From Gaiellaceae bacterium (GTDB lineage: Bacteria; Actinomycetota; Thermoleophilia; Gaiellales; Gaiellaceae): DNA of 64,000 bases. The DNA lies in the NCBI GenBank assembly GCA_026002995.1, contig BPGK01000001.1, positions 2,293,988 through 2,357,987 of the forward strand. The letters run 5' to 3'. Made by a program: the position numbers and the translations under genes. This document shows, piece after piece, positions 38,141-54,148 of the stretch (its first letter is position 1; each line of letters begins with the position of its first letter). The notes beneath the pieces were generated by a model. The model was not told the DNA's origin. It did no database searches and saw only the letters and a program-made list of their open reading frames with translations.

Positions 38141-38167
38141 CGGGCGCGCGGCCGACGTCGCCGTCGG

Positions 38168-39715
38168 CTAGCGACCGGCCCGCTCGGCCTCGAGCCGGCG
38201 CAGCTCGTTGCGACGGATCTTCCCCGTGACGGTGAGAGGGAGCTCGTCGACGAAGGCGATCGCGCGCGGCACCTCGTAGGGCGCGAGGCGCTGCCGCACC
38301 CAGGCCGTGAGCTCGGCCGCGAGCGCCTCGTTCGGCTGCACCCCGGACGTCGGCACGACGAACGCCTTCACGACCTGCCCGCGCACCTCGTCGGGAACGC
38401 CGATCGCGGCGGCGAGGGCGACCGAGGGGTGGCGCACGAGGCAGTCCTCGATCTCGCCTGGCCCGATCCGGTAGCCGCCGCTCGTGATCAGGTCGTCGGC
38501 CCGCCCTACGAACCACAGGTAGCCGTCGTCGTCTCGCTCGGCGAGGTCGCCGGTGAGGAGCCAGCCGTCGCGGACCTTGGCTTTCGTCGCCTCGGGGTTT
38601 CGCCAGTACTCGAGGAAGACGACGGGGTTGCCCTCGACCCGCACCGCGAGCTCGCCCTCGACGAGGCCGACCTCGTGCCCCGGGTAGGGGAGGCCCATGG
38701 AGCCCGGCTTCGCGGGCCAGGCGGAGCAGTTGCCGACGAGGAGGTTCGCCTCCGTCTGCCCGTAGAACTCGTTCAAGCGGACGCCGAAGCGCTCCTCGCA
38801 CCAGGCGGCGGTCTCCTCACCAACGGTCTCCCCGCCGCTCGCGAGCGTCCGCAGCCCCGGTCGGGCGGATCCGCCCGCCGCGCGGAGCATCCGCAGCGCA
38901 GTCGCTGGCATGAACACGTTCCTGACCTCGAGGCACTCCATCAGGTCGAGCGCCTGCTCGGGGTCGAAGCGCCGCGCGCGGAAGGCGACCACCGGCACCC
39001 CGTGGACGAGCGAGGGTATGAGGACGTCGTAGAGGCCCCCGATCCAGGCCCAGTCCGCGGGCGTCCAGATCCGATCGCCCGGCTGCGGGAAGAAGTCGTG
39101 CGAGAGCTCGAACCCCGGAAGGTGGCCGGCCAAGACGCGATGGCCGTGGAGGGCGCCCTTCGGCGGGCCGGTCGTCCCGGACGTGTACACGAGGAGCGCC
39201 GGCGTGTCGGGCCCCGTCTCCGCCGCCGCGAAGCGCGGCGACGCGATCGCGAGGAGCCGGGGGAGGTCGCGGTCGACGTCGACGAGCGCGGCGTCCGACC
39301 CGGTGGCGGCCACCTTCTCGAGCGCGTCCGCCTCCCCGATGACGACGCGGGGCTCCGCGTCGCCGACGCGCACCGCGAGCGCGTCCTCGCCGAACTGGGT
39401 CGACAGGGGGAGCGCGATCGCGCCGAGCTTGTAGGCGGCGAGGTGGGCGAGAGCCGTCTCCACCCGCTGCGAGAGGACGATCGCGACCCGCGCGCCGGGC
39501 TCTACTCCGAGCGCGGCGAGCGCGTTGGCGAGCCGGTTCGAGTCGTCGGAGAGCTCCCCGAAGGTCGCCGTGCGCGTGATCCGACGGCCGTCGGTGACGA
39601 GGATCGCCGGCGCGCCGCGGGGGTGGCGGTCGACCGCCTCGACGCCGATGTTGACGCGCTCGGGGAGGCGCCAGGCGAAGGACGCGCACAGCTCCTCGTA
39701 GCTCCGCCCGCTCAC
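38168..39715 (-). CDS. AMP-forming acyl-CoA synthetase / ligase
   Basis: GTG at 39715 (515 aa by count). YTSGTTGPPKG, YGQTE, TGDL..RDDDGYLWFVGRADD, GKIRRNEL. Confidence 0.9.
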   Translation of the reverse strand: MSGRSYEELCASFAWRLPERVNIGVEAVDRHPRGAPAILVTDGRRITRTATFGELSDDSNRLANALAALGVEPGARVAIVLSQRVETALAHLAAYKLGAIALPLSTQFGEDALAVRVGDAEPRVVIGEADALEKVAATGSDAALVDVDRDLPRLLAIASPRFAAAETGPDTPALLVYTSGTTGPPKGALHGHRVLAGHLPGFELSHDFFPQPGDRIWTPADWAWIGGLYDVLIPSLVHGVPVVAFRARRFDPEQALDLMECLEVRNVFMPATALRMLRAAGGSARPGLRTLASGGETVGEETAAWCEERFGVRLNEFYGQTEANLLVGNCSAWPAKPGSMGLPYPGHEVGLVEGELAVRVEGNPVVFLEYWRNPEATKAKVRDGWLLTGDLAERDDDGYLWFVGRADDLITSGGYRIGPGEIEDCLVRHPSVALAAAIGVPDEVRGQVVKAFVVPTSGVQPNEALAAELTAWVRQRLAPYEVPRAIAFVDELPLTVTGKIRRNELRRLEAERAGR

Positions 39716-40857
39716 GTCCACAGCCACTCGAGCGTCCGCAGGTAGACCTTCGCCGCCCGCTCTAGCTCGGAGACGGTGATCGACTCGACGTCCGCGTGCG
39801 CGCCGCTGCCGACGGGCCCGTGGTAGACGGTCGGGATCCCGGCCTGGTGGAAGATCGCGCCGTCGGCGACGACCTTGAGCCCGACCAGTGGCAGCTCGTC
39901 GCCGGTCACGTCGCGGTAGGCGTGGCGGAGGGCGAGCGCGAGCTCGTGCTCGGGATCGATGCGGTAGGCGTCCCGGACGAGACGGCAGTCGAGCTCGATC
40001 TCGCAACCGGTCTCCTCGGCCAGCGGCGCGAGCAGCGCTCGCAGCTCGGCCTCGATGTCGTCGAAGGGCCGGCCCGGCGCCCAACGGCGGGTGCCGACGA
40101 TCCGGCAGCTCGTCGGATGCCGGTTGTAGAAGTCCCCGCCGTGCACCTCGCCGAGGAAGATCGTCTCGGCCCCCACCCACTCGTGCTCGGTCGCCGCCAG
40201 CTCGGCCCGCAAGGCTGCGAGAGCCTCGATCACCCGGCCCGCGGCGAAGAGGGGGTGCGGTGTCCCGGGAGGCGTCTGTAGCTCGTGCGTCGCCATCCCC
40301 GGGCGGGAGATCGTGAGCTCGACCGTCGCCTGACCCATGTGGGCGACCGGGAAGGCATGGCCGCCGAGCTCGCAGACGATCGCGAGGTCGGCGGTGAATC
40401 CCGTCTCCCCGAGGAGGTAGGAGAGATCCTCGCCGCGGCCGGTAGGCGCCTCGTGGAGGCCGATGGCGACGATCACGACCTCCCCCGGGAAGGACCTATC
40501 GCTCGCCGCCAGCACGCGGGCCGCCTCGGCCGCCGAGGCGAGCGCGCCCTTCATGTCGGCCGCGCCGCGGCCGACGAGGACGTCGCCCTCGAGCCGCGGG
40601 GGCTCGTGCGGGATCGGCACGGTGTCGAGGTGGCCGTTGAGGACAACCGTGGGACCCGGCTTGCCGCCGCGGAGACGGCCGACGACGATCGGCGTCGCCG
40701 AGAAGGCCTCGTCCAGCAGCTCCACCTCGAGCCCGCTCTCCGCCAGCCGCCGGCCGTAGAGGCGCGCGACCTCGGCCGTGTCCCCGGTCGGGCTCGGGAC
40801 CTCCACCAGCTCGAGCGCGAGCGACGCGAGCCGCTCGCGGTCGACGCGATCAACCAT
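39712..40857 (-). CDS. M20-family metallopeptidase/deacylase (ArgE/DapE/ACY1 type)
   Basis: ATG at 40857 is preceded by GAGGAGGTGGAAGAG. NGHLDTVP and GRGAADMKG metal-site motifs are present. Confidence 0.88.
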   Translation of the reverse strand: MVDRVDRERLASLALELVEVPSPTGDTAEVARLYGRRLAESGLEVELLDEAFSATPIVVGRLRGGKPGPTVVLNGHLDTVPIPHEPPRLEGDVLVGRGAADMKGALASAAEAARVLAASDRSFPGEVVIVAIGLHEAPTGRGEDLSYLLGETGFTADLAIVCELGGHAFPVAHMGQATVELTISRPGMATHELQTPPGTPHPLFAAGRVIEALAALRAELAATEHEWVGAETIFLGEVHGGDFYNRHPTSCRIVGTRRWAPGRPFDDIEAELRALLAPLAEETGCEIELDCRLVRDAYRIDPEHELALALRHAYRDVTGDELPLVGLKVVADGAIFHQAGIPTVYHGPVGSGAHADVESITVSELERAAKVYLRTLEWLWT

Positions 40858-41714
40858 CTCTTCCACCTCCTCGGACGAAGCCGAGGCCGATGTGCGACTG
40901 GCGGCGGCTGGGATGGCTGCGGCTCCGGGCGGCGCAGCGCGCGAGGCTCGGGTCGGAGCTGGCGTACGAGCCTCCGCGCAGCACCCGCTCGCCACCGTCG
41001 GCCGACGGACCTGGGTAGGACCCGTACCAACTCCCGGTCCACTCCCACACGTTCCTCACCACGTCGAGCAGACCGTACGGGTTGGCGCCGTCCGGATGCG
41101 ACCCCACCGGCTCCGTCGCACCCCTCTTGATCCCCCGCCCGGTGAGGGCGCGGACGAGCTCGGAGCTCCCGGCGGCCGGCGCGGCGGCGGGGCGGAGGCC
41201 GATGTACGGGTCGCGGGCCGCTCGGGCCGTCGCCGTAGACGGCCGCGATCCACTCGCCGACGTTCCCGGCGAGATCGAGCACGCCGAGCGGCGAGGCGCC
41301 GGCCCTGAGCGAGCCGACCACCGGGCGCGGGCGCCCGATCGCCGCCGTGAAGACGACACGGGTCGCATCCGGCAGCTCGTCTCCCCCAGGGCGAGAGCCG
41401 GTCGTCCCCGCCACGCGGGGCGTGCTCCCACTCGTCCTCGGTCGGAAGTCGCGCCTCCACCCAGGCACAGAACGCGGCCGCGTCGTCCCAGGTCACGTAG
41501 CCGACCGGCACGTCGTCCTCGCCGACGCGTGCCCAGGCTCGACCGGTCGCGGCGGCGAAGCGACCGTGCGCGTTCGTCACCGGCGTGCGGGCGATGCGGT
41601 AGGGCCCGAGAGTCACGAGCCGCCGCGACTGCTAGTCGTCGTCGGGCGGGAACACCCTCCCGGATCGCTCCCCATGAGGAACGGCCCGGCGGGTACGAAG
41701 CGCCACTCGATCAC
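40850..41714 (-). pseudogene. FGE/SUMF1 (formylglycine-generating-enzyme-like) domain gene, multiply frameshifted with an in-frame TAG
   Basis: The domain is spread over all three minus-strand frames. VIEWRFVPAGPFLMGSDPGG starts at GTG 41714. VFPPDDD-TAG-QSRRLVTLGPYRIARTPVTN...VTWDDAAAFCAWVEARLPTEDEWEHA follows in a second frame. DELPDA...SPLGVLDLAGNVGEW follows in another. NPYGLLDVVRNVWEWTGSWY...RVLRGGSY ends at 40850. Confidence 0.6.
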
Positions 41715-43597
41715 GCGGGGATCACCGGCAGGACGACGACGCCCCCGTGAACCGTGTTCTCCGCCCGGACCGTGTGCGTGTGCCGGCCGATCGGCTCGCC
41801 CGTGTTCGGGTTCCGCTCGAGCCGCGGGAAGTTCGACGACGAGATGTCGACCCGGATCCGGTGCCCGGCCGCGAACAGGTTCGAGGTCGGCGGGAGCGAG
41901 ATCGTCACCTCGACCTCCTCCCCGGGCTCGAGCAGCTCCTCCGACTCGAAGCCGTTCCGGTAGCGGCAGCGGATGACGGAGTCGTTGAGGAGCATGTCGT
42001 AGCCATCCGGGTAGTCCTCGTTCGGCGGATAGACGTCGATCAGCTTGGCCGTGAAGTCGGTGTCCGGGGCGCTCGACGAGACCCGGAGGCGGACGGTCAC
42101 GCGACCGGTCACCTCGACCGGCTCCGCGAGCGGCTCGGTCTGGTAGACGAGGACGTCGGGACGCTCGGAGAGACGGCGCCCGGGCCGCCGCGCGGTGAAG
42201 AACTCCTCCCGCTCGACCTGGTCCGCGGGGCCCGGGGTCATGATGTTCCGGAGCAGGAGCGCCGGGTTGAGGAGGCGCATCCACGCGGGCTCCATCCCCT
42301 CGCCCTCGGGCGGCAGCTCGCCGACGGCGCAGTAGAGGCCGCCAATCGTCGGTACCGGGTCCTCGGGGTCGTAGACGAAGGTCCGCGGCGGATCGCCGGC
42401 GGGCGGTGGCAGCGGCCTGAGCGTCCCGTCCCCGTGCAGGTGGAGCGTCCTCTCGACCGCGCGCGCGAGCGGCCACTCGTGCTCCTCCCGCCAGCGGCCG
42501 CCGTGGTCGAGCTTGCCCTCGGCGGTCTTCCGCCCGCTGCCGCCGCCCATGACGAAGATGCGGATCGGCGCCTCGTCGTGCGACGCGCCCGGGGCGTCGT
42601 CCCGGAGCCAGCGGTCGAAGAACGCGAGCTGCTCCTCGAAGTAACGGCGTACGCCCCACACGGAGTCGGGCCCGAAGTCCACGTCGAGCGTCCACGACGC
42701 GTCACCTCGCATCCCGACGTGGCTCCAGGGGCCGACGACGAGCCGCTGCGGCGCGCTGTTCCTCTCGGCCATGGCCGCGAAGTACTCCGTGCCCGAATGC
42801 GGGAAGCCGTCGAACCAGCCCGTCGAGATCGTCGCCGGGATGTCCGCGTGCTCGTGCCAGAAGCGCGTGAAGTCGTTCTCCTTGCGTGCCCAGAACTCGT
42901 CGTAGGCGCCGCGCGTGCAGTAGTCCTCGAGCGTGCGGTCGAGCGCGGGGACGTGGCGGAGCGAGAGCTCGCCCTCGTGCCACGGCCACCCCCACATGAG
43001 CTGCCGGAGGTTGCGCAGGTCGTTCCACACCTCCTCCTGCTTGGCGGGATCGGCCTGCACCTCTTGGGCATCCGCGGCATGGATGAAGAGCGCCCAGAAC
43101 ATGTGGAGCTGCATCACGCCGCCCTCGCGCGTCTGGTGGTGGTACATGCAGGTCGGGGCGACGTCTGGCCAGATGGCGGTCAGGTGCGGGGGGCGCTCGA
43201 GCGCAGTCCGAATCTGCGTGATCCCCGCGTACGAGCTCCCGACCATGCCCGTGCGCCCGTTGCTCCACGGCTGAGCGGCGATCCACTCGATCGTGTCGTA
43301 GCCGTCCCTACCGGTGTGTGGCGTCACGACGTGGAAGTACTCCTTCGTTCCCTCGGACCGGTGGCGGTCGCGCATGTCCTGGAGCACGACGACGTAGCCG
43401 TGCGGGACGAAGAAGTCCGCGATCTCGACGTAGCGCCGCTCGCTCTTGTCGTAGGGCGTGATGCAGACGATGGTGGGAAAACGGCCGTCGACGAGCTCTC
43501 CGTCGCGCGCCGGGCGGTGGATGTCCGTCGCGAGCCGTATCCCGTCGCGCATGGGGACCATCACGTCCTTTGCGACGACGATGCCGTAAGGCGTCAC
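41711..43597 (-). CDS. CocE/NonD-family hydrolase, second paralog
   Basis: 628 aa. MRDGIRLATDIHRP, ITPYDK, GMVGSSYAG (nucleophile elbow), and the C-terminal PTSNLFAAGHRIRVDISSSNFPR. Confidence 0.9.
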   Translation of the reverse strand: MTPYGIVVAKDVMVPMRDGIRLATDIHRPARDGELVDGRFPTIVCITPYDKSERRYVEIADFFVPHGYVVVLQDMRDRHRSEGTKEYFHVVTPHTGRDGYDTIEWIAAQPWSNGRTGMVGSSYAGITQIRTALERPPHLTAIWPDVAPTCMYHHQTREGGVMQLHMFWALFIHAADAQEVQADPAKQEEVWNDLRNLRQLMWGWPWHEGELSLRHVPALDRTLEDYCTRGAYDEFWARKENDFTRFWHEHADIPATISTGWFDGFPHSGTEYFAAMAERNSAPQRLVVGPWSHVGMRGDASWTLDVDFGPDSVWGVRRYFEEQLAFFDRWLRDDAPGASHDEAPIRIFVMGGGSGRKTAEGKLDHGGRWREEHEWPLARAVERTLHLHGDGTLRPLPPPAGDPPRTFVYDPEDPVPTIGGLYCAVGELPPEGEGMEPAWMRLLNPALLLRNIMTPGPADQVEREEFFTARRPGRRLSERPDVLVYQTEPLAEPVEVTGRVTVRLRVSSSAPDTDFTAKLIDVYPPNEDYPDGYDMLLNDSVIRCRYRNGFESEELLEPGEEVEVTISLPPTSNLFAAGHRIRVDISSSNFPRLERNPNTGEPIGRHTHTVRAENTVHGGVVVLPVIPA

Positions 43598-45660
43598 ACC
43601 ATCCTCCTCAGGAGCAGGTTGCCGTAGGTGTCGACCTCCACCCAGAAGCCTGGATGGACGACGGTCGTCGAGTCGTACTCCTCGACGATCGCCGGCCCCT
43701 CGAAGCGGGCGCCCGCCGGGAGCGCCGAGCGCTCGTACACCGCGGTCTCGACGTACCCGCCTGCCTCGGTGAAGTGCACCGGGCGAGAACCGGTCGGTGC
43801 CGGCAGCGGACCCGCCTCGAGCGGCTTCGGCACGGGCTTGGGGATCCGACCGACCGCCCGGACGCGGACGCTCACGAGCTCGATCGGCTCGCCGGGAGCG
43901 CTGAACCCGTACGCCCGGTCGTGCTCGGCGTGGAAGAGGTCGGCGGCCGTCTCCGGATCCGCGGATGCGACCGTGAGCTCGAAGCTCTGCCCGACGTACC
44001 GGAGGTCGAGCTGACGGACGGTGGAGACGTCCTCGGGCGCGGTGCCCTCCCGCTCGAGGTCACGCCGCCCCGCGTCCTCGAGCGGGGCGAAGAGCTCGTC
44101 GAGGCGCTCTCGGGTGACCTCTGCAAGGGGCGCCAGCACCGTTGTCGTGTACTCATGGTGGAGGTCGGTCACGAGCAGGCCCGTCGCCGAGAAGATCCCC
44201 GGGCTGCGCGGCACGAGAACGGTGTTGATCTCGGCGTCGCGAGCGAGCGCGTTCGCGTGCGCAGGCCCCGCGCCTCCGAAGGCAACGAGCACGAACCGGC
44301 GTGGATCGTGGCCACGCTGCACCGAGACGAGGTGGAGCGCGTTGCCCATTGCAGCGTTGGCGATCTCGACGATCCCACGCGCGGCCTCGACGACGTCGAG
44401 ACCGAGCGGCTTCGCGCAGCGCTCCTCGATCGCCGCGCGTGCGCCCTCGACGTCGAGCTCGATCTCGCCGCCGAGGAAGTTCGTCGGGCTCAGCCGCCCG
44501 AGCACGAGGTTCGCATCGGTGATCGTCGGCTCAGCGCCCCCGCGTCGGTAGCAAACCGGCCCGGGGTCGGCGCCCGCGCTGCGGGGGCCGACCCGGAGCT
44601 TGCCGCCGGTGTCGATCCACGCGATCGAGCCGCCCCCCGCCCCGATCTCAACGAGATCGACCACCGGCGTTCGAACCGGGTATCCGCTGAAGGAGGAGCC
44701 ACCGATTCCCGCCTGGGCGGCGCTCCCGACCTGGAAGTCCTTGGTGACCGTCGGCTCGCCGTCCTGGACGAGGCTGACCTTCGCGGTTGTGCCGCCCATG
44801 TCGAAGGAGATGACGTCGGGCTGGCCGAGCGCGCGACCGAGCTGTGCCGCGGCAATGACGCCGGCCGCCGGGCCCGACTCGACCATGTATACAGGCCGCC
44901 GCTTCGCCGCTGTCGCGGTGTAGACGCCGCCCGCGGACTGCATGACGAGGAGCTCGGCGTCCACGCCGCGGTCGGCGAGACGATCCTCGATGCTCTCGAG
45001 GTATCTGAGCACGACGGGTTGGACGCCGGCGTTGATGACGGTCGTCGAGGCTCGCAGGTACTCGCGGAACTCCGGAGCGACGCTGGACGAGAGCGAGATC
45101 TCCACTCCCGGCAGCTCCTCGGCGAGGATCTCGCCGACGCGGCGCTCGTGGGCGTCGTTCACGTACGCATGCAGGAGACAGACGGCGACCGCCTCCACGT
45201 CCTCCGCGCGCAACGAAGCGGCGACGTCGCGGACGTGCTCCTCGTCGAGCTCGCGGAGCACGGAGCCGTCCGGCCCGAGACGCTCGCGGACGCCGAAGCA
45301 CCGGTGCCGAGGCACGAGGGGCCGTGGCTTTTCGAAGTGGACGTTGTAAAGGGCGGAGCGGACCTGACGCTGGATCTCGAGGAGGTCGCGGAAGCCATCG
45401 GTCGTGACGAATGCGGTCCGCGCGAGCTTGCCTTCGATGATCGCGTTCGTCGCCACGGTCGTCGCGTGGGCGAGGTACCGCAGGTCGCGGCCGGCGACGC
45501 CGGCCTCCGCGAGGAGGCGCTCCATCGCGAGGAGGAACCCGACCGACGGGTCGCTCGGCGTCGTGGACACCTTGGCGATGCAAACTTCGCCCGTCGCCTC
45601 GTCGACGAGGGTCGCGTCGGTGAACGTGCCGCCGATGTCGACGCCGAGCCGGTAGCTCAT
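43594..45660 (-). CDS. hyuA: Hydantoinase/oxoprolinase A-type subunit (HyuA family)
   Basis: ATG at 45660 (residue 104 of the composite ORF). MSYRLGVDIGGTFTD, GFRDLLEI and DMGGTTAK are ATPase-fold motifs. Confidence 0.92.
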   Translation of the reverse strand: MSYRLGVDIGGTFTDATLVDEATGEVCIAKVSTTPSDPSVGFLLAMERLLAEAGVAGRDLRYLAHATTVATNAIIEGKLARTAFVTTDGFRDLLEIQRQVRSALYNVHFEKPRPLVPRHRCFGVRERLGPDGSVLRELDEEHVRDVAASLRAEDVEAVAVCLLHAYVNDAHERRVGEILAEELPGVEISLSSSVAPEFREYLRASTTVINAGVQPVVLRYLESIEDRLADRGVDAELLVMQSAGGVYTATAAKRRPVYMVESGPAAGVIAAAQLGRALGQPDVISFDMGGTTAKVSLVQDGEPTVTKDFQVGSAAQAGIGGSSFSGYPVRTPVVDLVEIGAGGGSIAWIDTGGKLRVGPRSAGADPGPVCYRRGGAEPTITDANLVLGRLSPTNFLGGEIELDVEGARAAIEERCAKPLGLDVVEAARGIVEIANAAMGNALHLVSVQRGHDPRRFVLVAFGGAGPAHANALARDAEINTVLVPRSPGIFSATGLLVTDLHHEYTTTVLAPLAEVTRERLDELFAPLEDAGRRDLEREGTAPEDVSTVRQLDLRYVGQSFELTVASADPETAADLFHAEHDRAYGFSAPGEPIELVSVRVRAVGRIPKPVPKPLEAGPLPAPTGSRPVHFTEAGGYVETAVYERSALPAGARFEGPAIVEEYDSTTVVHPGFWVEVDTYGNLLLRRMV

Positions 45661-47375
45661 CGGGCGACCTCCGCCCGCAGCTTGCGCGTCTCGCTCTCGT
45701 CGACCCGCCGGGCTTCCATGTCGACCGCAACCCGATACACCGCCCGTGCGCGCTCGACGCTCACCTTCCCGTCGACGACGTCCCGGAGGACGAGCTCCGG
45801 GTCGCGCTCGTGCGGAGGGCCGTAGCCGCCGCCGCCACACGTCCTGTAGCTGACGAGCTCGCCGGCCTGCACCTCGACGGTGGACTTGGCGCCAAGCCGG
45901 CGCTCCCCCTCCGCGGTCTGGAGGACGTACTCGGCCGGTCGACCGGGGAGGCCCCCGAACAGCCCCCACGGCCCCTCCTTGTCACGGTCGGCGAGCACGG
46001 AGAACGTCACCGGCCCGCGCGGGAAGCGGTAGTCCTTGCGCAGCCCGAGACCGCCGCGGTACCGACCTGCGCCCTCCGAGTCCTCGACGAGCTCCAGCCG
46101 CTCGACGAGCACCGGGTAGCCGCGCTCGGTCTCCTCGACGGGGGCGTTCTCGGTGTTCTGGCCGTGCGCCTGCACGGCGTCCGGGCCGTCGCTTCGGAAC
46201 CGGCCGCCGTAGCCGCCGCCGAAGGTCTCGAGGAAGCACCAGTACCCGAGCTCGGGGTCGACGCCGCCGAAGCCCGCGTGACACATCATCCCTTTCGTTC
46301 CCGCCGGCACGCCGTGCGGGAGCGCCTCGGAGAGCGCGCGGAAGATCACCTCGACGAGCCTGGTGTGCGTCTCCCAGCCGCCGACCACCGGCGCCGGCCA
46401 CTCCGCGTGCGCGATCGTGCCTGGCCTCGTGTCTACCTGCAGCAGCCGGTAGAAGCCGTCGTTCACCGGCAGGTCGGGATCGATGAGGCACTTGAGCGCG
46501 TACGCGCAGGCGGAGTACGTCTGCGCGTAGGTCGAATTCACCGGCGCTCGGCGCTGCGGCTCCGAGTCCGTGATGTCGAAGCGGACGCCGTCGGCGCGCA
46601 GCTCGACGCGGGCGTGCAGGCGCACGCGCTCGTCGCTGTAGCCGTCGGAGTCGACGTAGCCCTCCGCCTCGAAGCTCCCGTGCGGGAGGCGCGCGAGCTC
46701 CGCGCGCGTGCGCCGCTCGGTGTAGTCGAGGAGCTCGTCGATCGCCGCGCGCACGGTGCCGAGGCCGTGGCGCTCGAGGAGCGCGCCGACGCGTCGGATC
46801 CCGGTCGCGTTCGCCGCGACCTGAGCGCGGAGGTCGCCGCCCGTCTCGTGTTTCGACCGAATCTGAGCCAGGACGAGCTTCCAGACGTCGGGGACGAGCG
46901 CTCCGGCCTCGACGACCTTGACCGGCGGGATGATCAGGCCCTCTTGGAACACCTCGCGGAAGGCGCCGATCGAGGCCGGCGCGCCCCCTCCGACGTCGAC
47001 GTGGTGCGCGAGGTTGGCGACGTAGCCGACGAGCTCGCCGTCCCAGAAGACCGGCGAGACGAGGCTCACGTCGTTCAGGTGCACGCCGCTCGGGAACGGG
47101 TCGTTCGTGATGATCGCGTCGCCGGGGCCGATGTTCTCGGCGCCGTACTCGGTCACCGCGCGCGGGACCTGCTGCACCATCGACCCGAGGTGCACGGGCT
47201 GGGTGAAGCCCTGAGCGATGCAGCGCAGGTCGGCGTCGAAGAAGGCGCACGAGAAGTCCGCGCGCGTCTTGATGTTCGTCGAGTAGGCGGCGCGCCGCAG
47301 GGATACGACCATCTCGTCGGTCGCCGCAACGAGCGCGTTCCGGACGACCTCGAACGTGATCGGGTCGAGGCTCAT
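45657..47375 (-). CDS. hyuB: Hydantoinase B/oxoprolinase-type subunit (HyuB family)
   Basis: ATG at 47375. MSLDPITFEVVRNALVAATDEM..., NDPF..G.HLND, and GGGGYGPPHERDPELVLRDV at the C-terminus. Confidence 0.92.
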   Translation of the reverse strand: MSLDPITFEVVRNALVAATDEMVVSLRRAAYSTNIKTRADFSCAFFDADLRCIAQGFTQPVHLGSMVQQVPRAVTEYGAENIGPGDAIITNDPFPSGVHLNDVSLVSPVFWDGELVGYVANLAHHVDVGGGAPASIGAFREVFQEGLIIPPVKVVEAGALVPDVWKLVLAQIRSKHETGGDLRAQVAANATGIRRVGALLERHGLGTVRAAIDELLDYTERRTRAELARLPHGSFEAEGYVDSDGYSDERVRLHARVELRADGVRFDITDSEPQRRAPVNSTYAQTYSACAYALKCLIDPDLPVNDGFYRLLQVDTRPGTIAHAEWPAPVVGGWETHTRLVEVIFRALSEALPHGVPAGTKGMMCHAGFGGVDPELGYWCFLETFGGGYGGRFRSDGPDAVQAHGQNTENAPVEETERGYPVLVERLELVEDSEGAGRYRGGLGLRKDYRFPRGPVTFSVLADRDKEGPWGLFGGLPGRPAEYVLQTAEGERRLGAKSTVEVQAGELVSYRTCGGGGYGPPHERDPELVLRDVVDGKVSVERARAVYRVAVDMEARRVDESETRKLRAEVAR

Positions 47376-48520
47376 CGCTCCTCCCTTCGCTTCTCGACGG
47401 CGCGGTAGGCGCCGTGCGACTCGTACCGCTCCCGTGCTCTCGCGACCGCTTCGTGGTCGAGCTCGATACCGAGTCCCGGCCCGTTCGGTAGACGCAGTGG
47501 CCCCACGGACGCAACCTCCGCGGGCGCCGCGAGGATCGACTCCGCCAGCAGCTGGTGCATCGCCTGGTTGCCGAGCGTCAGGTTCGGGATGCAGGAGACC
47601 GCCTGCGCGCCCGCGAGCGTCGAGAGCGCCGTCTCCATACAGGCGTGCCTGTTCACGAGCACGCCGTAGGTCTCTGCGAGGGCGGCGAGCTGGCGCAGCC
47701 GCCACAGGCCCCCGGTCTCGTGGTGGCCTACGACGACGACGTCGGCCGCCTCGTGCTCGAGCACGTGTCGGAGTTCGCCGGTCGTGTAGACGGCCTGATC
47801 AGCCGCGACCTTGACATCGACCTTGCGTCGGACGAAAGCGAGCCCCGCGACGTCGTCGGCACGGACCGGCTGCTCGACCCAGTCGAGGCCGTAGGGCTCG
47901 AGCGCGCGGATGCGCTCCACCGCCTCCGCAGGGCTCCACGCCTCGTTCGCGTCGACGCGCAGGAGCGGTCCCGGGCCGACCGCATCCCGCACCGCCGCGA
48001 CGATCTCCTCGTCGCCCGCGTCGGCCCTGCCGACCTTGCAGTAGACGACACGCGCGCCCTCTCCCGCGAGGCGCGCGGCGTCCGCCGCCACCTCGTCAGG
48101 GGTCTCGCCCTGTGGAAACGCCATCAGATCGACCTCGTCGCGGACACGCCCGCCCAGGAAGGCGCTCACCGGCAGGTCGTGCGCCTTGCCCCACGCATCC
48201 CAGCAGGCGACCTCGATTCCGGCGACGATCTGGTTCGTGAAGCGCGGCGTGAACCGCCAGCGTCCCTCGCGCCAGAGGGCGCCGAGGATCGCCTCGACGT
48301 CTCCCGGCGAGCGGCCGACGAAGCGCTCCGCGAGCAAGCGGCCGTAGGCCTGGACGGCTGCCGGTTCCTCGCAGATCGACTCGCCGTAGCCCTCGATGCC
48401 CTCGTCGGTCTCGACCGTCCACAGCACGAGGTTGGCGCCGAGCTGGCGGCCCGAGCTCCAGTGGAACGGCCGCGCGAGCGGGAGCGCGAGCGGCGTCGCG
48501 TGGACGGCGACGACCCTCAC
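47372..48520 (-). CDS. Enolase-superfamily enzyme (MR/MLE family; atypical active-site strand)
   Basis: A GTG start at 48520 (GTGA overlap) is preferred over 48541. VDANEAW, VEQPV, AADQAV. YCKVG sits where the KxK motif is expected, and GHHETGGL sits where the strand-6 Lys/Asp is expected. Confidence 0.85.
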   Translation of the reverse strand: MRVVAVHATPLALPLARPFHWSSGRQLGANLVLWTVETDEGIEGYGESICEEPAAVQAYGRLLAERFVGRSPGDVEAILGALWREGRWRFTPRFTNQIVAGIEVACWDAWGKAHDLPVSAFLGGRVRDEVDLMAFPQGETPDEVAADAARLAGEGARVVYCKVGRADAGDEEIVAAVRDAVGPGPLLRVDANEAWSPAEAVERIRALEPYGLDWVEQPVRADDVAGLAFVRRKVDVKVAADQAVYTTGELRHVLEHEAADVVVVGHHETGGLWRLRQLAALAETYGVLVNRHACMETALSTLAGAQAVSCIPNLTLGNQAMHQLLAESILAAPAEVASVGPLRLPNGPGLGIELDHEAVARARERYESHGAYRAVEKRREER

Positions 48521-49707
48521 GCCCGGTTCCCCGGCCCCCACACCGAGCTGAATGTCCGCCCCTCCGCGAACCTGCGGCCAGAGAGGCTCGAGATGTCGAT
48601 CGGCGGCTCCAGCCCCGCAATGACGTGCGCGAGCGACTCGCCGATGGTCGGACCGATCTTGAAGCAGTGCCCGCTGCCACCGAAGGCGGAGTAGTACCCC
48701 TCGACCTCCTCCTCGCCGACCACCGGATACCAGTCCTCGGTGATGTCGTAGATACCCGAGTAGCCGGTCACGAACGCGCCCCCGTACCCGGGCTCGCCCA
48801 GGCGCTCCGCGAGCGCGGGTAGGCGCCGCACGAGCTTCGGCACCATCCGCCCGAGGTGCTCCTCGTCGGTGCCGTCGTCGTAGCGGTCGGGATCGGCGGG
48901 CTCGGGCTCCTTCGGCCAGCCCTCGCCGACGAGGACGCGACCGGTGCCGTAGTGGCGGAAGTAGAGCCGCTGAACCGCGTCCGACATGACCGGGAAGGCA
49001 CCGAGATCCGCCGGCGCCTCGAAGATCGCCTCGTGCTCGCGGCTGAACCGGAGCGGATACTCGATCCCGACCATGCGACCGACCTCGTTCCCCCAGGGGC
49101 CGGTCGCATTCACGACGACGTCGGTGGCGATCTCGCCGTCGCCGGTCACGACCCCCGACACGCGTCCGCGCTCGACGTGTATCCCGAGGACGCGACAGCC
49201 TTCGTAGACCGTGAGGCCGCGCTGCTTGGCCGTGTCCACGAGCGTCTGGACGGTGAGGACCGGGTCGGCGTAGCCCGACGTCTCCTCGTAGCAGCCGAGC
49301 GCGACCCCGTCGAGCGCGAGAGCAGGCCAGCGGTGGGCGATCTCCTCCACCGTGAGCACCTCCGTTCGCACGCCGAGCGCCTGCTGAACGGGAACGACCT
49401 GGCGGATCGCGTCCGCCTGCTCTTCCGGGGCAATGACCATGTACCCGTGCCGCGTGAAGCCGGTCGGGCCGCCGAACGCCTCCTCGTCGTTCGCGAACAT
49501 CTCCGCCGCGCGCACCGCGAGTCGAATCGCAACCTCGTTCGTGTAGTGCTGGCGCACGTGCGCTGCGGAGTACTGGGTCGAGCCTCCGCAGATCCTCGAC
49601 TTCTCTACGAGCACGACCTCGCCGTAGCCCAGCTTCACGAGGAAGTGGGCGACGCTCGCCCCCATGATCCCGCCGCCGATGACGACGGCGTCAGCTCGTT
49701 CGCGCAT
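48517..49707 (-). CDS. FAD-dependent oxidoreductase (DAO family; sarcosine-oxidase-beta / D-amino-acid-oxidase-like)
   Basis: 396 aa. The N-terminal dinucleotide fold reads DAVVIGGGIMGASVAHFL..VVLVEK. The C-terminal motif reads GGSGHCFKIGP. Confidence 0.9.
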   Translation of the reverse strand: MRERADAVVIGGGIMGASVAHFLVKLGYGEVVLVEKSRICGGSTQYSAAHVRQHYTNEVAIRLAVRAAEMFANDEEAFGGPTGFTRHGYMVIAPEEQADAIRQVVPVQQALGVRTEVLTVEEIAHRWPALALDGVALGCYEETSGYADPVLTVQTLVDTAKQRGLTVYEGCRVLGIHVERGRVSGVVTGDGEIATDVVVNATGPWGNEVGRMVGIEYPLRFSREHEAIFEAPADLGAFPVMSDAVQRLYFRHYGTGRVLVGEGWPKEPEPADPDRYDDGTDEEHLGRMVPKLVRRLPALAERLGEPGYGGAFVTGYSGIYDITEDWYPVVGEEEVEGYYSAFGGSGHCFKIGPTIGESLAHVIAGLEPPIDISSLSGRRFAEGRTFSSVWGPGNRA

Positions 49708-51421
49708 TCCGCTCCTCTCTCGTCGCCTCCTCGTCCACCGAGCCGTCGGGTCGGAGGACCACGCCGTACTCCTCGAGCGCCGCGCGGACGCTCACCTTCT
49801 CCTGCGCGACGTCGGCCGCCACCGCCGCGGGGTCGCGCTCGAGCGGGTCGCCGTAGCCACCCCCGCCCGCGATCCGGTGGTAGAAGACCTCGCCCGCCCC
49901 GATCGTGGTGGAGAACATCGACGGCAGCTCCTCCTCGCTCCCATCGGGGCGCCTGAGGACGTTGAGCGACGGGGCGCCCGGTCGGCCGCCGTGCAGCCCG
50001 TAGGGCGGGTGCGCGCGCCGATCCGAGCGCACGATGAGCGAGGTGTCGTCCGTCAGGCAGCGCCAGGCCCGCTCGATCGCGAGGCCGCCGCGGTAGCGTC
50101 CCGCTCCGCCCGTGTCCGGGACGAGGCCGTAGCGCTCGACGAGGATCGGGTACTCGCTCTCGGCGACCTCGACGGGGATGTTCGCGGCGACGCTGCACGG
50201 GTTCGCAAGCCCATCGTTCCCGTCGCCCTCAGGTGTCGCCCCCCACGTCCCCGTGACGAGCTCGTAGTAGACGAAGCGCTCGCCGGTGGGGCGCTCCGCG
50301 CCGAAGATCGCGAGCGTATTCCCACCCTCCCCCGCTGCGGCGATCCGATCCGGGATCAGCTGCGCGAGCGCACCGTTGACGGCGTCGAAGGCGCGGAAGC
50401 CGGTGACGCCGCGCATGCTCGAGGCGCCGGGCATGACCACCTCCGCGATCGTCCCGGGCCGCGTGACGACGGTGATCGGGCGGAAGGCCCCGGAGGTGTT
50501 CGGTACCTCAACGGAGAGCGCGGCCCGAATGGCCTGGTAGACGACGGCCTGGATGAACGAACGGGTGCTGTTGAGCGCCCCCCGTACCATCGGCGACGAC
50601 TCGGAGAAGTCGGCGATCACCTCGTCCCCCGCGATCGTCACCGTCACGTGGATGGGGACGTCCACGCGCTCGATCCCGTCCGAGTCGAGGTAGTCGACGA
50701 AGCTCGCGCTGCCGTCGGGCCAGCTCGCGATCTCGCTCCGCACAAGCCGCTCCGTATGCTCGACGAGCGCGCCCATGAGCGCCTGCAGGCGCTCGACGCC
50801 ATACCGCTCGACGAGCGCAAGGAGCGAGCGCTCGGCCACCGAGCAGGCGGCGACCTGTGCACCGAGATCGCCGAGGGTCATCCGCGGGATGCGGACGTTC
50901 GCGGAGATGATCTTGAAGACGTCCTCGACCGGCTCCCCCTCCGCATACAGCCGCAGCCAGGGCAGACGGATCCCCTCCTGGAAGATCTCGGTGTTGTCGC
51001 AGGCGCTCGACCCCGGAAGGCGGCCCCCGACGTCCCCGTGGTGCGCCGTCGTGGCCGCGAACCCGACGAGCGTCTCGCCCGAGAACACCGGCTTGAAGAC
51101 GAACACGTCCTGGAGGTGGATGCCGCCGTCGAAGGGGTCGTTCATCACGTAGACGTCGCCGGGACGCAGCTCGTCCCCGTAGCGGGCGAGGAGCTTCTCC
51201 ATCGCCACAGGCAGCGACCCGAGATGGAACGGAACGCTCACCGCCTGGGCTACGGTCTCTCCGCGCGCGTCGCAGAGCGCGGCGGAGAAGTCCATGCCGT
51301 CGCGAACGACGGTCGAGTGCGCCGTGCGGAAGATCGTCGTCGCCATCTCGTCCGCGATCGACGCGAGCGCGTTGGCCACGATCTCCTGCGTGACGGGGTC
51401 GGCGTGAGCGTTCGTCGTCAC
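49691..51421 (-). CDS. hyuB: Hydantoinase B/oxoprolinase-type subunit, second copy
   Basis: 576 aa. DPVTQEIVANALASIADEM, NDPFDGGIHLQD, GGGGYGDPLERDPAAVAADV. Confidence 0.92.
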   Translation of the reverse strand: MTTNAHADPVTQEIVANALASIADEMATTIFRTAHSTVVRDGMDFSAALCDARGETVAQAVSVPFHLGSLPVAMEKLLARYGDELRPGDVYVMNDPFDGGIHLQDVFVFKPVFSGETLVGFAATTAHHGDVGGRLPGSSACDNTEIFQEGIRLPWLRLYAEGEPVEDVFKIISANVRIPRMTLGDLGAQVAACSVAERSLLALVERYGVERLQALMGALVEHTERLVRSEIASWPDGSASFVDYLDSDGIERVDVPIHVTVTIAGDEVIADFSESSPMVRGALNSTRSFIQAVVYQAIRAALSVEVPNTSGAFRPITVVTRPGTIAEVVMPGASSMRGVTGFRAFDAVNGALAQLIPDRIAAAGEGGNTLAIFGAERPTGERFVYYELVTGTWGATPEGDGNDGLANPCSVAANIPVEVAESEYPILVERYGLVPDTGGAGRYRGGLAIERAWRCLTDDTSLIVRSDRRAHPPYGLHGGRPGAPSLNVLRRPDGSEEELPSMFSTTIGAGEVFYHRIAGGGGYGDPLERDPAAVAADVAQEKVSVRAALEEYGVVLRPDGSVDEEATREERNARTS

Positions 51422-53481
51422 GAGCGTGTACCTCGCTCGAGGATCAGCGTCGAGGTGGCCTCGTGCCGGCGCACCGTCCAGCCGGGCCGGACGACGACGG
51501 TCGTGTCGTACTCGTCCACGAGGAGCGGACCCTCTTCGGGCTCGGCGTCGATCGAGCTTCGAGTGCGAACCGGGACGGCGAGAGCGTCGTGTCCGAAACG
51601 GGCGACCCGCTCGGCGTCACGCACCGGCGGGTCGGCAGGAGCAAGCACATCCGCGGGCGGCATGGGGCCGAGCGCAGCGACCCGGAGCGCGCGCAGCTGC
51701 ACCGGAGAGCCCGCCTGTCCGCGCACTCCGTACAGGCGCTCGTGCTCGTCCTCGAAGCGCGCGACGAGCGCGGCGAGCGCTTCGGGGGTGACGCGTCGCG
51801 AGGGGAGCTCTACCTCGACCTCCCAGCTCTGCCCCTCGTAGCGAAGCTCCGCCGTTCGCGACCATTCGAGCTCGGGGAGGTACGCGAGCGCGGCGCGCAG
51901 GCCAGCCTCCATCTCCGCGTAGAGCTCCTCGAGCGCCGCCGGATCGGCCGAGCGGGCGTCGAGGTGGCAGGGGCGGACGTCGTGGAACTCGGGGCGCGCG
52001 AAGAGGAGCCCGACCGCGCTGAAGAGCCCTGCGAGCGGGGGGACGAGCACGGTGGCGACGCCGAGCTCCTCGGCGAGACCCGCCGCGTGGATCGGCCCGG
52101 ACCCGCCATAGGCGAGGAGCGTGAAGTCACGTGGATCTCGACCCTTCTCGGAAGAGACGCTGCGCAGCGCTCGCGTCATGCGCGCGTTCGCGATCTCGTG
52201 GATGCCGCGCGCCGCTGCCTCGAGGGAGAGTCCGAGCGGCGCCGCCACCCGGAGCACGGCCTCGGCGGCACGCTCGACGGAGACCGAGATCTCGCCGTCC
52301 GCGAGCGTCGCGCCGGGCATGTAGCCGAGGACGACGTTCGCGTCCGTGACCGTAGGCTCGACCCCACCACGCCCGTAGCACGCCGGCCCTGGCTCGGCGC
52401 CCGCGCTCCGCGGGCCGACCATGAGACCCCCTGCGGCGTCGAGCCATGCGATCGACCCTCCGCCCGCGCCGATCTCTGCGATGTCGATGGTGGGGATCCG
52501 GAGCAGCTCCCCGGATCCGCGCAGCAGCCGACTCCCTGCCGAGAGCGATCCTCCCGCCTCGTACTCCCGGCCGCGCGTGAGAGCGCCGCGCTCGATGAGC
52601 GAGGCCTTTGCGGTCGTACCGCCCATGTCGAACGAGATGACGTTCTCGTACCCGATCCGGGTGGCGATGCCGAGCGCGGCGACAACTCCCGCAGCAGGGC
52701 CGGATTCCAGGGCGAAGACTGGACGCTCCTCGGCGTCGTGCGCAGTCATGACCCCTCCAGAGGACTGCATGATCCGAAGCGGGGCCTCGAAGCCGCGCTC
52801 GGCGAGCCCGCTGCGGATGCTCCGCAGGTACGAGCTCATCAGCGGTCGAACGTACGCGTTGACGACCGTCGTCGCCGTGCGCTCGTACTCGCGCTGCTCG
52901 CGCAGGATCCGGCTCGAGAGCGAGACGCTGACACCGGGAAGCTCGTCCTCGAGCACGGCGCCCACGCGCTCCTCGTGCTCGGGGTTCGCGTACGCGTGCA
53001 GGAGGCACACGGCGACCGACTCGACGCCGAGCTCCCGGAGCCGCGCCGCGACCTCCCGCACCTCGTCCTCGCGGAGCTGCTCGAGCACCGAGCCGTCCGC
53101 GGCCAGGCGCTCGGTCAACTCGAGCCGCAGTCGCCGCTCGACGAGAGGGGGCGGCTTTCGCCAGAAGAGGTCGTACATGTGCGGGATCCGGAGGCGCCGG
53201 AGCTCCAGGACGTCGCGAAAGCCCTTGGTCGTCACGAGGGCCGTCCGGGCACCCCGCCGCTCGAGCACCGCGTTCGTCGCGACCGTCGTCCCATGCACGA
53301 TCTCCTCGAGGTCGCAGTCCGCGGCCGCGAGCTCACTCACCGAGGCGACCACCGCCCGGTCGTAGTCGGGCGGCGTCGAGAGGACCTTCCGCACTTGCAC
53401 CGCACCGGTCGAGGAGAGATGGACGACGTCCGTGAACGTCCCACCGACGTCGACGCCGACCCGTGCCGACGCGGCCGTCAC
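51418..53481 (-). CDS. hyuA: Hydantoinase/oxoprolinase A-type subunit, second copy
   Basis: GTG at 53481 (GTGA overlap with the RraA-like stop). ARVGVDVGGTFTD, GFRDVLEL, DMGGTTAK. Confidence 0.92.
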   Translation of the reverse strand: MTAASARVGVDVGGTFTDVVHLSSTGAVQVRKVLSTPPDYDRAVVASVSELAAADCDLEEIVHGTTVATNAVLERRGARTALVTTKGFRDVLELRRLRIPHMYDLFWRKPPPLVERRLRLELTERLAADGSVLEQLREDEVREVAARLRELGVESVAVCLLHAYANPEHEERVGAVLEDELPGVSVSLSSRILREQREYERTATTVVNAYVRPLMSSYLRSIRSGLAERGFEAPLRIMQSSGGVMTAHDAEERPVFALESGPAAGVVAALGIATRIGYENVISFDMGGTTAKASLIERGALTRGREYEAGGSLSAGSRLLRGSGELLRIPTIDIAEIGAGGGSIAWLDAAGGLMVGPRSAGAEPGPACYGRGGVEPTVTDANVVLGYMPGATLADGEISVSVERAAEAVLRVAAPLGLSLEAAARGIHEIANARMTRALRSVSSEKGRDPRDFTLLAYGGSGPIHAAGLAEELGVATVLVPPLAGLFSAVGLLFARPEFHDVRPCHLDARSADPAALEELYAEMEAGLRAALAYLPELEWSRTAELRYEGQSWEVEVELPSRRVTPEALAALVARFEDEHERLYGVRGQAGSPVQLRALRVAALGPMPPADVLAPADPPVRDAERVARFGHDALAVPVRTRSSIDAEPEEGPLLVDEYDTTVVVRPGWTVRRHEATSTLILERGTRS

Positions 53482-54086
53482 CGCGAGCCCTCCACCCCAA
53501 GCCCGAGAAGGGTCGAGAGCGACTCGCCGCGCCCGAGAGCGCTGCGCAGCTCCGACTCCTCCTCGTCGAGCCGCCGCGCCCGCTTCTGCACCGACCTCCA
53601 CTCCTCCGCAGGCACGACGAGCACGCCGTCTCGATCGGCGACGACGACGTCACCGGGGACGACGGGAACGCCGCCGAGCTCGACGGGCTCCTCGAGCAGG
53701 GGGGCCTCGGCCTTGGCGGCGCGACCCGGGGCGAAGCCGCGATGGAAGACGGGGAAGCCGAGACCGCCGAGGACGGAGCCGTCGCGCACCGCGCCGTCGA
53801 TCACGAGACCGCGGAGGCCACGGCTCCGCGCCTCCAGGGCCATCAGCTCGCCGAAGTAGCCGACGTCGTCACGCCCGCCGGCGTCGCAGACGAGCACCGA
53901 GCCCGCGGGAGCCGTCGCGAGCAGGTGATGGAGGGCGAGGTTGTCACCAACCGCGCACGCGCAGGTCGCCGCCGGTCCCACGAGCCGCGAGTCGGGGGCG
54001 ATCGGCACGAGCCCGCGGACACGACGCACCGCCTCTGCGGCCACGCTCGCAACGGAAGCGGCGCTCGGGAGCGGAGATGCACTCAC
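53478..54086 (-). CDS. RraA-family protein (RNase E regulator / HMG-aldolase / oxaloacetate decarboxylase fold)
   Basis: GTG at 54086 is the tentative start. GSVLVCDAGGRDDVGYFGELMALEARSRGLRGLVIDGAVRD...GDVVVADRDGVLVVP is the RraA core. Confidence 0.8.
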   Translation of the reverse strand: MSASPLPSAASVASVAAEAVRRVRGLVPIAPDSRLVGPAATCACAVGDNLALHHLLATAPAGSVLVCDAGGRDDVGYFGELMALEARSRGLRGLVIDGAVRDGSVLGGLGFPVFHRGFAPGRAAKAEAPLLEEPVELGGVPVVPGDVVVADRDGVLVVPAEEWRSVQKRARRLDEEESELRSALGRGESLSTLLGLGVEGSR

Positions 54087-54127
54087 AGACGGACGACCGC
54101 CCGGCGTGCTATCGTCGCAGCGATATG

Positions 54128-54148
54128 CGATTTGAGATAGCAAATTGC
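54128..54148. promoter_or_regulatory. Imperfect inverted repeat GCGATTTG-agatag-CAAATTGC upstream of the second GntR gene
   Basis: It sits in the AT-rich centre of the 90-bp divergent intergenic region. 7 of 8 arm positions are complementary. The sequence differs from the ATTGTCAACAAT boxes. Confidence 0.3.

Follow-up and report, generated by a model that had tools for sequence, protein, structure and literature searches.

The racemase HyuE belongs to the hyu system of Pseudomonas sp. NS671. In that system, hyuABC(E), 5-substituted hydantoins are converted to L-amino acids by an ATP-dependent ring opener (HyuA/HyuB), an amidohydrolase that releases the amino acid and a stereo-inverting enzyme, all encoded in one operon (summarised in PMC8453981). 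HyuA and HyuB form (alpha-beta)2 complexes, the ASKHA motifs of the family are defined as P1 DxGGTxTD, P2 DxGGT and adenosine GxxPGP, and CapB carries a metal tetrad (D41/H99/D102/H124) whose mutation inactivates the caprolactamase CapAB (PMC8453981). HyuAB-type opening followed by an FAD oxidase acting on an N-alkyl amino acid is found in the nmpABCF N-methylpyrrolidone pathway of Alicycliphilus sp. BQ1 (PMC6987047, citing Solis-Gonzalez et al. 2018) and in the route from creatinine through N-methylhydantoin to sarcosine. Here we analyze a related locus in 64,000 nucleotides from a Gaiellaceae bacterium (contig BPGK01000001.1, positions 2,293,988 to 2,357,987; this whole stretch is called the window). 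The block at window positions 38168-54086 is probably one catabolic operon, controlled by a regulator of the GntR/FCD family and dedicated to opening cyclic amides, in an uncultured soil actinobacterium of the Gaiellaceae type (Thermoleophilia).

Eleven stop-delimited units fill the block on the minus strand (~71% GC in the window sequence). An earlier sequence-only reading of this DNA had reported eleven cistrons joined by ten overlaps; all eleven stops and all ten junction sequences match our own. In the direction of transcription, and with the stop at the lower coordinate, the units are as follows.

53478-54086, minus strand: RraA-like protein (class II aldolase/oxaloacetate decarboxylase family), first gene; Pfam RraA-like, E=6e-36, NCBIfam below cut-offs.
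51418-53481, minus strand: HyuA1, ATP-binding subunit of the hydantoinase/oxoprolinase/caprolactamase type; Pfam Hydant_A_N and Hydantoinase_A.
49691-51421, minus strand: HyuB1, metal-site subunit; Pfam Hydantoinase_B, full profile.
48517-49707, minus strand: FAD-dependent amine oxidase/dehydrogenase of the DAO family (DAO below); Pfam DAO.
47372-48520, minus strand: enolase-superfamily protein of an uncharacterised 2pgw-like subgroup (enolase below); Pfam MR_MLE_N/C.
45657-47375, minus strand: HyuB2, second metal-site subunit; Pfam Hydantoinase_B.
43594-45660, minus strand: HyuA2, second ATP-binding subunit; Pfam Hydant_A_N, Hydantoinase_A and Hydant_A_C.
41711-43597, minus strand: CocE/NonD (S15) serine hydrolase (CocE below); Pfam Peptidase_S15 and PepX_C.
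40850-41714, minus strand: FGE-sulfatase-like pseudogene with a two-domain ancestor (unit 9); three-frame translation and tblastn against an intact homologous protein from a relative (L001).
39712-40857, minus strand: M20 metallohydrolase, ArgE/DapE deacylase type; Pfam Peptidase_M20 and M20_dimer, with its own strong Shine-Dalgarno sequence, GAGGAGG.
38168-39715, minus strand: acyl-CoA synthetase (ligase below), last gene; Pfam AMP-binding and AMP-binding_C.

Eight of the ten junctions are 4-nt GTGA or ATGA overlaps, at 53478, 51418, 48517, 47372, 45657, 43594, 41711 and 39712. The other two are a 17-nt overlap (49691-49707), which places the DAO ATG (49707) inside HyuB1, and an 8-nt overlap (40850-40857), which places the M20 ATG (40857) inside the last frame of the FGE remnant. 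The earlier count of eleven cistrons stands for the units and their overlaps, though not for the genes: unit 9 is dead, leaving ten intact genes, each with a family assignment supported by Pfam, and eight of the ten junctions join two intact genes. The coupling chain consists of seven junctions, then ~0.75 kb lacking an intact reading frame (after a 33-codon stub), then one further junction. The pseudogene stretch excepted, the units share the properties expected of an operon, with one strand, no intergenic gaps and supported start/stop overlaps. As most of these are NTGA or other short overlaps with internal Shine-Dalgarno sequences, translation of neighboring genes is probably coupled. Long open reading frames (ORFs) on the plus strand across from the operon genes, such as 43570-45825 and 51463-53859, were rejected as high-GC shadow ORFs, because codon-position GC and Pfam mark the minus-strand frames as coding.

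The earlier reading had named wrongly chosen start codons as one way in which its view could fail. Pfam domain onsets, independent gene calls, relatives and Shine-Dalgarno sequences support the starts, and the first three of these rule out artificial overlaps created by mis-chosen starts. Pfam domains begin at residues 4-18 of the proposed proteins, so the next downstream start would truncate them, while alternative upstream starts would merely lengthen the overlaps. The Joint Genome Institute (JGI) contig L015, from a metagenome, is 99.83% identical to window positions 58520-37372, without gaps; JGI's independent calls on it give identical starts for eight genes and differ for the RraA-like gene (54044) and the ligase gene (39721, still overlapping). 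Alignments with homologous proteins (64-87% identity) start at residue 1 and are shifted by no more than 0-3 residues, and a GGAGG-like Shine-Dalgarno sequence lies within the upstream gene at 7 of 10 starts. The RraA-like start, GTG 54086 (GTG-AGY), is kept in relatives, as is the -4 ligase start at 39715 in L001 and L005. ATG 54158 and ATG 54152 were discarded as RraA-like starts; both fall within the conserved -10/operator element described below.

Next, we compared the block with relatives retrieved with the enolase protein, all of them metagenome-assembled and labelled Gaiellaceae, Gaiellales, Thermoleophilia or Actinomycetota. Two of them, L001 and L005, have the complete gene order plus the divergent GntR/FCD gene. 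In L003, L004, L006, L007 and L016-L018 the core is kept: GntR / HyuA1-HyuB1-(DAO)-enolase-HyuB2-(HyuB2')-HyuA2. Overlaps of -4, -8, -10 and -17 are mostly preserved, also in independent gene calls, and the 17-nt DAO/HyuB1 overlap recurs in L001, L005, L007 and L015. Thus, the search for this gene order in other genomes, which the sequence-only reading had proposed, finds both order and junction type conserved (L001, L003-L007, L016-L018), with a few lineage-specific gaps. Around this core the gene content varies. The RraA-like gene is accessory, being intact in L005, split over two frames in L001 (4445-5031) and missing from L006, which also lacks FGE, and from L007; in these last two HyuA1 directly follows the operator. 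HyuB2 is tandem-duplicated beside one HyuA2 in L004 (1498-4928), L007 (11140-14555) and L016-L018. DAO and the greater part of the distal region are missing from L018. L008 (6300-10004) carries HyuA1 and HyuB1 fused into one protein of 1234 aa, like eukaryotic oxoprolinase, and L009 and L014 have only parts of the operon. Genes outside the stable core are common yet dispensable. Presence varies for RraA, DAO, CocE, FGE, M20 and the ligase, which in relatives can be frameshifted or lost. Fragmented genes in L016-L018 are possibly assembly errors and were not interpreted.

The genes flanking the block are not conserved beside it in relatives and were discarded as members; therefore, the GntR gene and the operon form the unit. 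Its regulatory elements are these.

54177-54878, plus strand: divergent GntR/FCD-family regulator, likely a repressor of the operon; Pfam GntR and FCD.
54126-54159, minus strand: candidate promoter/operator, identified by sequence and conservation; a -10-like TATGCT (54159-54154) followed by the imperfect palindrome GCGCAATTTG-N6-CAAATCGC (54151-54126).
38102-38168, minus strand: GC-rich stem-loop found by RNA folding, starting at the final base of the ligase stop (UAG, 38170-38168) and overlapping the 3' end of a convergent MFS gene.

The regulator gene adjoins the operon in L001, L005-L008 and L016-L018. The AT-rich palindrome persists in eight lineages of this ~71% GC clade, and the -10-like box is present in all seven for which the retrieved sequence extends that far (operator regions at 4345-4405 in L001, 4383-4425 in L005, 4940-4990 in L006 and 4938-4985 in L007), and the element is conserved whether the RraA-like gene or HyuA1 comes first. 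In the window the operator motif occurs once only, matching on both strands. Eight AT-rich islands (40-nt stretches of at most 47.5% GC) occur in the 64-kb window, and the operator region is one of them; nearly all are intergenic, the remainder lie at gene edges, and none is inside the operon, whose 40-nt GC never falls below 55%, versus at most 40% at intergenic promoter regions. Scans with E. coli-type consensus sequences, a weak guide at 71% GC, reported nothing resembling a sigma-70 site or a terminator within the block, and an Rfam search yielded no element, itself a weak negative. Downstream, the fold of 38100-38200 reaches -68.7 kcal/mol (z=-3.3) without a U tract, and the consensus terminator scan did not report this hairpin; judged from the predicted fold, it is a possible terminator, perhaps a bidirectional one.

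The sequence-only reading had held that the block is a single unit and that internal promoters or terminators splitting it would overturn this view. As far as E. coli-type scans and AT-rich islands can reveal them, none was found, and the single-unit view gains from the conserved order and from an operator and -10-like box present only at the head. A single regulated operon is thus well supported, and the sequence evidence, though indirect, favors one promoter and one transcript.

Unit 9 interrupts this series. From its ancestral GTG (41714) it stays open for 33 codons only (stub 41613-41714), and past the stub, three-frame translation shows the FGE-like similarity moving to other frames. When the L001 protein was compared with the window by tblastn, it matched in pieces in three frames, with an in-frame stop and with residues ~170-335 gone. 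The remnant, at 865 nt, falls short of the intact gene (1320 nt) by an internal deletion of ~0.45 kb, and its codon-position GC is flat (0.75/0.73/0.76). An intact frame for the FGE-sulfatase domain is absent both from the window and from L015, which carries the same unit 9 state with zero indels and yet is separated from the window by 36 substitutions. Most of these are synonymous changes at third codon positions; within intact genes of the operon, 18 are synonymous and 7 non-synonymous. Because the lesion is the same despite these 36 substitutions, it is present in two diverged populations and is not one assembly error. Sequencing error was likewise rejected as the source of the frameshifts, given the identical state without indels in L015, the ~0.45-kb deletion and the in-frame stop. 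The remnant shows 4 substitutions per 853 nt between window and L015, versus ~1.7 per kb in the intact genes. On this sequence comparison, unit 9 is a true pseudogene. Both ancestral junction sequences at its borders survive, presumably because they hold the CocE stop and the M20 Shine-Dalgarno sequence and start.

The ancestral gene is recognizable from relatives, which carry it intact in L001 (16968-18287), L005 (16772-18073) and L007 (18626-20035). The L001 homologue, of 439 aa, has two FGE-sulfatase domains, and its gene shares 4 nt with CocE and 17 nt with M20. Intact unit 9 is an unusual protein with tandem FGE-sulfatase domains (433-469 aa) whose gene overlaps both neighbors. Downstream of the pseudogene, the ligase gene (38168-39715) differs from L015 by three non-synonymous and three synonymous changes and M20 by none. 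A loosening of constraint downstream of the pseudogene is one possible reading of the ligase differences, with numbers too small to tell.

We then asked what the intact enzymes might do. Both Hyu pairs have the domains and motifs of the family. HyuA1 carries D11VGGTFTD (P1), D285MGGT (P2) and G361AEPGP (adenosine), and HyuA2 carries D8IGGTFTD, D287MGGT and G363ADPGP; in both HyuB1 and HyuB2 the match spans positions 1-519 of the 519-position Pfam Hydantoinase_B profile. HyuB2 D40/H99/D102/H124 align with the CapB tetrad (6yra_B), and HyuB1 D44/H102/D105/H127 align with those of HyuB2, so that each pair combines A-subunit domains and ASKHA motifs with a B-subunit domain and an Asp-His-Asp-His site. 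The pairs are 47% (HyuA1 vs HyuA2) and 38% (HyuB1 vs HyuB2) identical. Their closest curated NCBIfam models are caprolactamase CapA/CapB, and the equivalog cut-offs of NF050156/NF050157 (1000 bits) are missed by all four proteins (HyuA1 517, HyuA2 567, HyuB1 331, HyuB2 302). The nearest structures to HyuB1 are 7hk5 (N-methylhydantoinase) and 6yra_B (CapB). N-methylhydantoinase and CapB structures score E=1e-72 to 1e-88 versus E=1e-13 to 1e-46 for carboxylases. Judged by these residues, both pairs are apparently competent and likely ATP-dependent ring openers of lactam- or hydantoin-type cyclic amides.

The structural neighbors of DAO act on N-alkyl or secondary amino acids. The nearest is 1y56_B, deposited as 'sarcosine oxidase', which we take to be the L-proline dehydrogenase beta subunit of Pyrococcus horikoshii; next in rank are dimethylglycine, glycine and sarcosine oxidases. 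The enolase is closest to an uncharacterised structure, 2pgw (E=1e-68), and a literature search for functional work on 2pgw gave method papers only. Its metal ligands D190/E216/D241 are present. At the positions that we take to be catalytic in 2p88, it has Y160-C-K162 where 2p88 has K-M-K, and Gly265 in place of the strand-6 Lys. The Y-x-K motif and the strand-6 Gly are common to 2pgw and 12 orthologues, and H292 and a G-[HS]-H-E motif (residues 265-268) are conserved across the orthologues. The protein thus has neither the KxK that ends strand 2 nor the Lys that ends strand 6 in the two-lysine MLE racemases/epimerases (NSAR, L-Ala-D/L-Glu epimerase); on these residues it appears to be an uncharacterised active-site variant and not a canonical NSAR or dipeptide-epimerase type. 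With the canonical catalytic lysines missing, its 'L-Ala-D/L-Glu epimerase-like' label is weakened as support for a cyclic-dipeptide route.

Genomic context adds to this picture. Alphaproteobacterial enolase homologues are 38-40% identical, and the closest plasmid-borne ones stand in L019 and L020. The first (L019 9001-15177, a Paracoccus seriniphilus plasmid) lies directly upstream of a SoxB-type, heterotetrameric sarcosine-oxidase-like operon; the second (L020, Sinorhizobium meliloti pSymA) lies among betaine ABC transporter, MttB-like, isochorismatase and Ldh-family genes. The enolase may thus be recurrently paired with an amine oxidase, a context that suggests N-alkyl amino acid metabolism. 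Among the remaining enzymes, CocE is nearest to cocaine esterase (E=8e-75), and M20 is a distant ArgE/DapE type, below the NCBIfam cut-off and nearest to the DapE entry 7uoi (E=3e-19). The ligase resembles short-chain acyl-CoA synthetases, its nearest NCBIfam models being archaeal-type acetate-CoA ligase and MbcS, both below cut-off. The only NCBIfam model passed by any operon protein is the generic CocE_NonD subfamily model, by CocE.

The surroundings in the window are also catabolic. Positions 14115-38140 are rich in genes for the breakdown of amino-acid derivatives and peptides, among them three further enolase paralogues (15509-16681, 19230-20363 and 30218-31375; 29-33% identical to the operon enolase), a second S15 hydrolase (34171-35871), a second GntR/FCD regulator (31530-32159), two AstE/AspA-type deacylases, an Amidohydro_3 enzyme, a threonine-aldolase-like lyase, aminotransferases and a complete Dpp-type ABC transporter.

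Our model suggests the following course of events. An inducer would release the GntR/FCD repressor, and a polycistronic mRNA would be made, most likely from a single promoter at 54126-54159, in the 90-nt divergent region, to the GC-rich hairpin after 38168. The two paralogous HyuAB enzymes would spend ATP to open lactam- or hydantoin-type cyclic amides, and the proline-dehydrogenase/sarcosine-oxidase-like FAD enzyme and the atypical enolase would process the resulting N-substituted amino acid. The S15 hydrolase and the ArgE/DapE-type M20 deacylase would then cleave the remaining amide or ester bonds, after which the RraA-like aldolase/decarboxylase and the acyl-CoA synthetase would pass keto-acid or acid carbon skeletons to central metabolism. 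The substrate is most likely an amino-acid-derived heterocycle, for example, an N-alkylated hydantoin, a lactam or a pyroglutamate-like compound. This course keeps the outline given by the sequence-only reading (two ring openings, oxidation, racemisation or dehydration, amide hydrolysis and CoA activation), which appears reasonable and agrees with NCBIfam. Its remark that no known route matches as a whole is consistent with the lack of any protein at equivalog cut-off.

Several observations weigh against this model. The promoter and terminator scans are of E. coli type and weak guides in a 71% GC actinobacterium, which bears on the presumed single transcript. The ~0.75-kb stretch without a frame lies upstream of M20 and the ligase and could cause polarity, or else an unrecognised internal promoter would be needed. 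Such promoters could lie in the real gaps that some relatives have: 187 nt ahead of HyuB2 (L001), ~122 nt ahead of HyuA2 (L004, L007) and 96 nt ahead of DAO (L006). No equivalog cut-off is reached, and therefore every enzymatic step is assigned at the level of the family; the enolase, without the canonical Lys pair of the racemase/epimerase families, may differ from them even in reaction type. Finally, the accessory genes vary, so that 'one pathway' may hold only for the core.

How unusual are the overlaps themselves? A rough gene map of the whole window, built from codon usage with the operon genes as training set, has 32 same-strand junctions outside the operon; 12 of them overlap, or 12 of the 23 with gaps of at most 50 nt. 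The convergent neighbor operon (32160-38140, plus strand; two Dpp-type ABC ATPases, the second S15 hydrolase, an aminotransferase and the MFS transporter) has four successive -4 junctions (33170, 34171, 35868 and 36965) and one zero-gap junction. If junctions are taken as independent and overlap at a rate of 0.38-0.52, the probability per operon is ~0.1-1% for a run of seven and ~0.005-0.14% for a run of ten; the seven-junction run is long, not exceptional, and expected often across many genomes. In published surveys, ~15% of gene pairs are co-directional and overlapping in most groups, a share that reaches up to ~30% in some (PMC6728339). Among prokaryotic spacings NTGA is much the most frequent, with -1 and -8 also enriched (PMC12548453), and it is the most frequent junction type in this window as well. 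The operon shares with NTGA-coupled operons generally its co-directional -4, -8 and longer overlaps and the Shine-Dalgarno sequences in the upstream gene (PMC6728339, PMC10666635, PMC12548453), and differs only in run length (7 intact junctions, 10 including the pseudogene borders). The overlaps are therefore real and conserved, yet such joining is routine in this genome and no special device, and NTGA junctions carry no special information on stoichiometry. This clean NTGA packing is typical of high-GC actinobacteria and has little significance beyond that; the operon does illustrate that overlaps can persist at the borders of an internally decayed gene, which outlast the decay presumably because those borders hold the neighbors' stop codon, start codon and Shine-Dalgarno sequence.

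These figures bear directly on the claim of the sequence-only reading that the uninterrupted coupling implies stoichiometric co-production and, probably, one pathway or complex. That eleven products in fixed stoichiometry form one multi-enzyme complex would fit the seven successive overlaps between intact genes, many conserved in relatives, and the (alpha-beta)2 association of HyuA and HyuB, the only known hetero-oligomers in the set (PMC8453981). We consider it very improbable, and the claim was not sustained: overlaps are the default in the window, the unrelated neighbor operon has four in a row, and NTGA is the commonest prokaryotic spacing (PMC12548453). A pseudogene carried by two diverged populations breaks the chain, the variable genes listed above are lost or broken in relatives, HyuB2 changes in copy number, and -17 overlaps are expected, according to a review, to couple less efficiently than -4 overlaps. 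We give next to no credence to a different role for the Hyu pairs themselves, as ATP-dependent carboxylases of the acetone/acetophenone type in an operon that degrades a ketone. Carboxylases belong to the same superfamily, with ATP motifs and metal tetrad in common (PMC8453981); the presence of two HyuA-type subunits is reminiscent of alpha and alpha' in acetophenone carboxylase, and NCBIfam Apc models do match. Such an enzyme would be recognized by a carboxylase best match and a small gamma subunit, and the operon offers neither: caprolactamase models (517-567 and 302-331 bits) and hydrolase structures score far above carboxylases, and the block lacks a gamma-subunit gene because every junction overlaps, leaving no room. 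The companion enzymes, too, are of amine oxidase and amidohydrolase types.

Another way to read the block is as two or more fused modules, an ancient core (HyuA1B1, enolase, DAO, RraA) and a second part (HyuB2A2, CocE, FGE, M20, ligase), with different substrates or partly independent expression. Relatives L008, L009 and L014 have only HyuA1/B1-type genes, the enolase, GntR and sometimes RraA or DAO; L018 has lost DAO and most of the distal part; the 187-nt gap in L001 falls exactly between enolase and HyuB2; and the Hyu pairs, just 47% and 38% identical, stand in mirror-image order, A-B then B-A. We nevertheless regard this as rather unlikely, since the enolase-HyuB2 junction is a -4 or -1 overlap in the window, L003, L005, L007, L016 and L018, no AT-rich island or operator copy lies inside the block, and both Hyu pairs accompany the enolase in all close relatives (at least 64% identity). 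Within the preferred reading, that of one GntR/FCD-controlled operon for opening cyclic amides, the core could also be a genuinely new catabolic route for abundant natural cyclic amides that have no known ATP-dependent pathway, such as 2,5-diketopiperazines or N-alkylated hydantoins and lactams from soil organic nitrogen. That core would comprise the two distinct HyuABs, the YxK enolase with a conserved His and no strand-6 Lys, and the proline-dehydrogenase-like FAD oxidase. Little is known of diketopiperazine degradation, according to the abstract of PMC3852281, and our literature search for ATP-dependent hydantoinase-type diketopiperazine cleavage found no paper with the full combination of terms. 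We hold this extension to be quite unlikely.

Gaiellaceae and Gaiellales are soil actinobacteria with few cultured representatives, and the cluster is conserved there; its enolase has hundreds of close metagenomic homologues. The cluster would mark an uncharacterised route of ATP-dependent cyclic-amide opening that may contribute to soil organic nitrogen turnover. Its biochemical value is modest, as the pathway is built from familiar parts.

The comparison with these familiar systems can now be made gene by gene. With the NS671 hyu operon the block shares the elements named at the outset, and it departs from that operon in having two divergent HyuAB pairs and extra DAO, S15, RraA-like and acyl-CoA synthetase genes. 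Its M20 protein is of the ArgE/DapE type and at most a candidate carbamoylase, and its candidate isomerase is an atypical enolase-superfamily protein, whereas that of NS671 is an Asp/Glu-racemase-type hydantoin racemase. CapAB and the valerolactam enzyme OplAB of Pseudomonas (PMC8453981) have the same ATP motifs and Asp-His-Asp-His site, and the B-A order of pair 2 is that of capBA; scores of the operon proteins reach about half or less of the equivalog cut-offs. Downstream of CapAB/OplAB comes an omega-aminotransferase route, whereas the operon provides an FAD oxidase, an enolase and hydrolases. The HyuA1-HyuB1-DAO sub-block follows the same logic as nmpAB and nmpC (PMC6987047). Compared with the nmpABCF and creatinine routes, the operon lacks a succinate-semialdehyde dehydrogenase, a creatininase and an isochorismatase-type N-carbamoylsarcosine amidase, and it adds an enolase-family gene, a second Hyu pair and further hydrolases.

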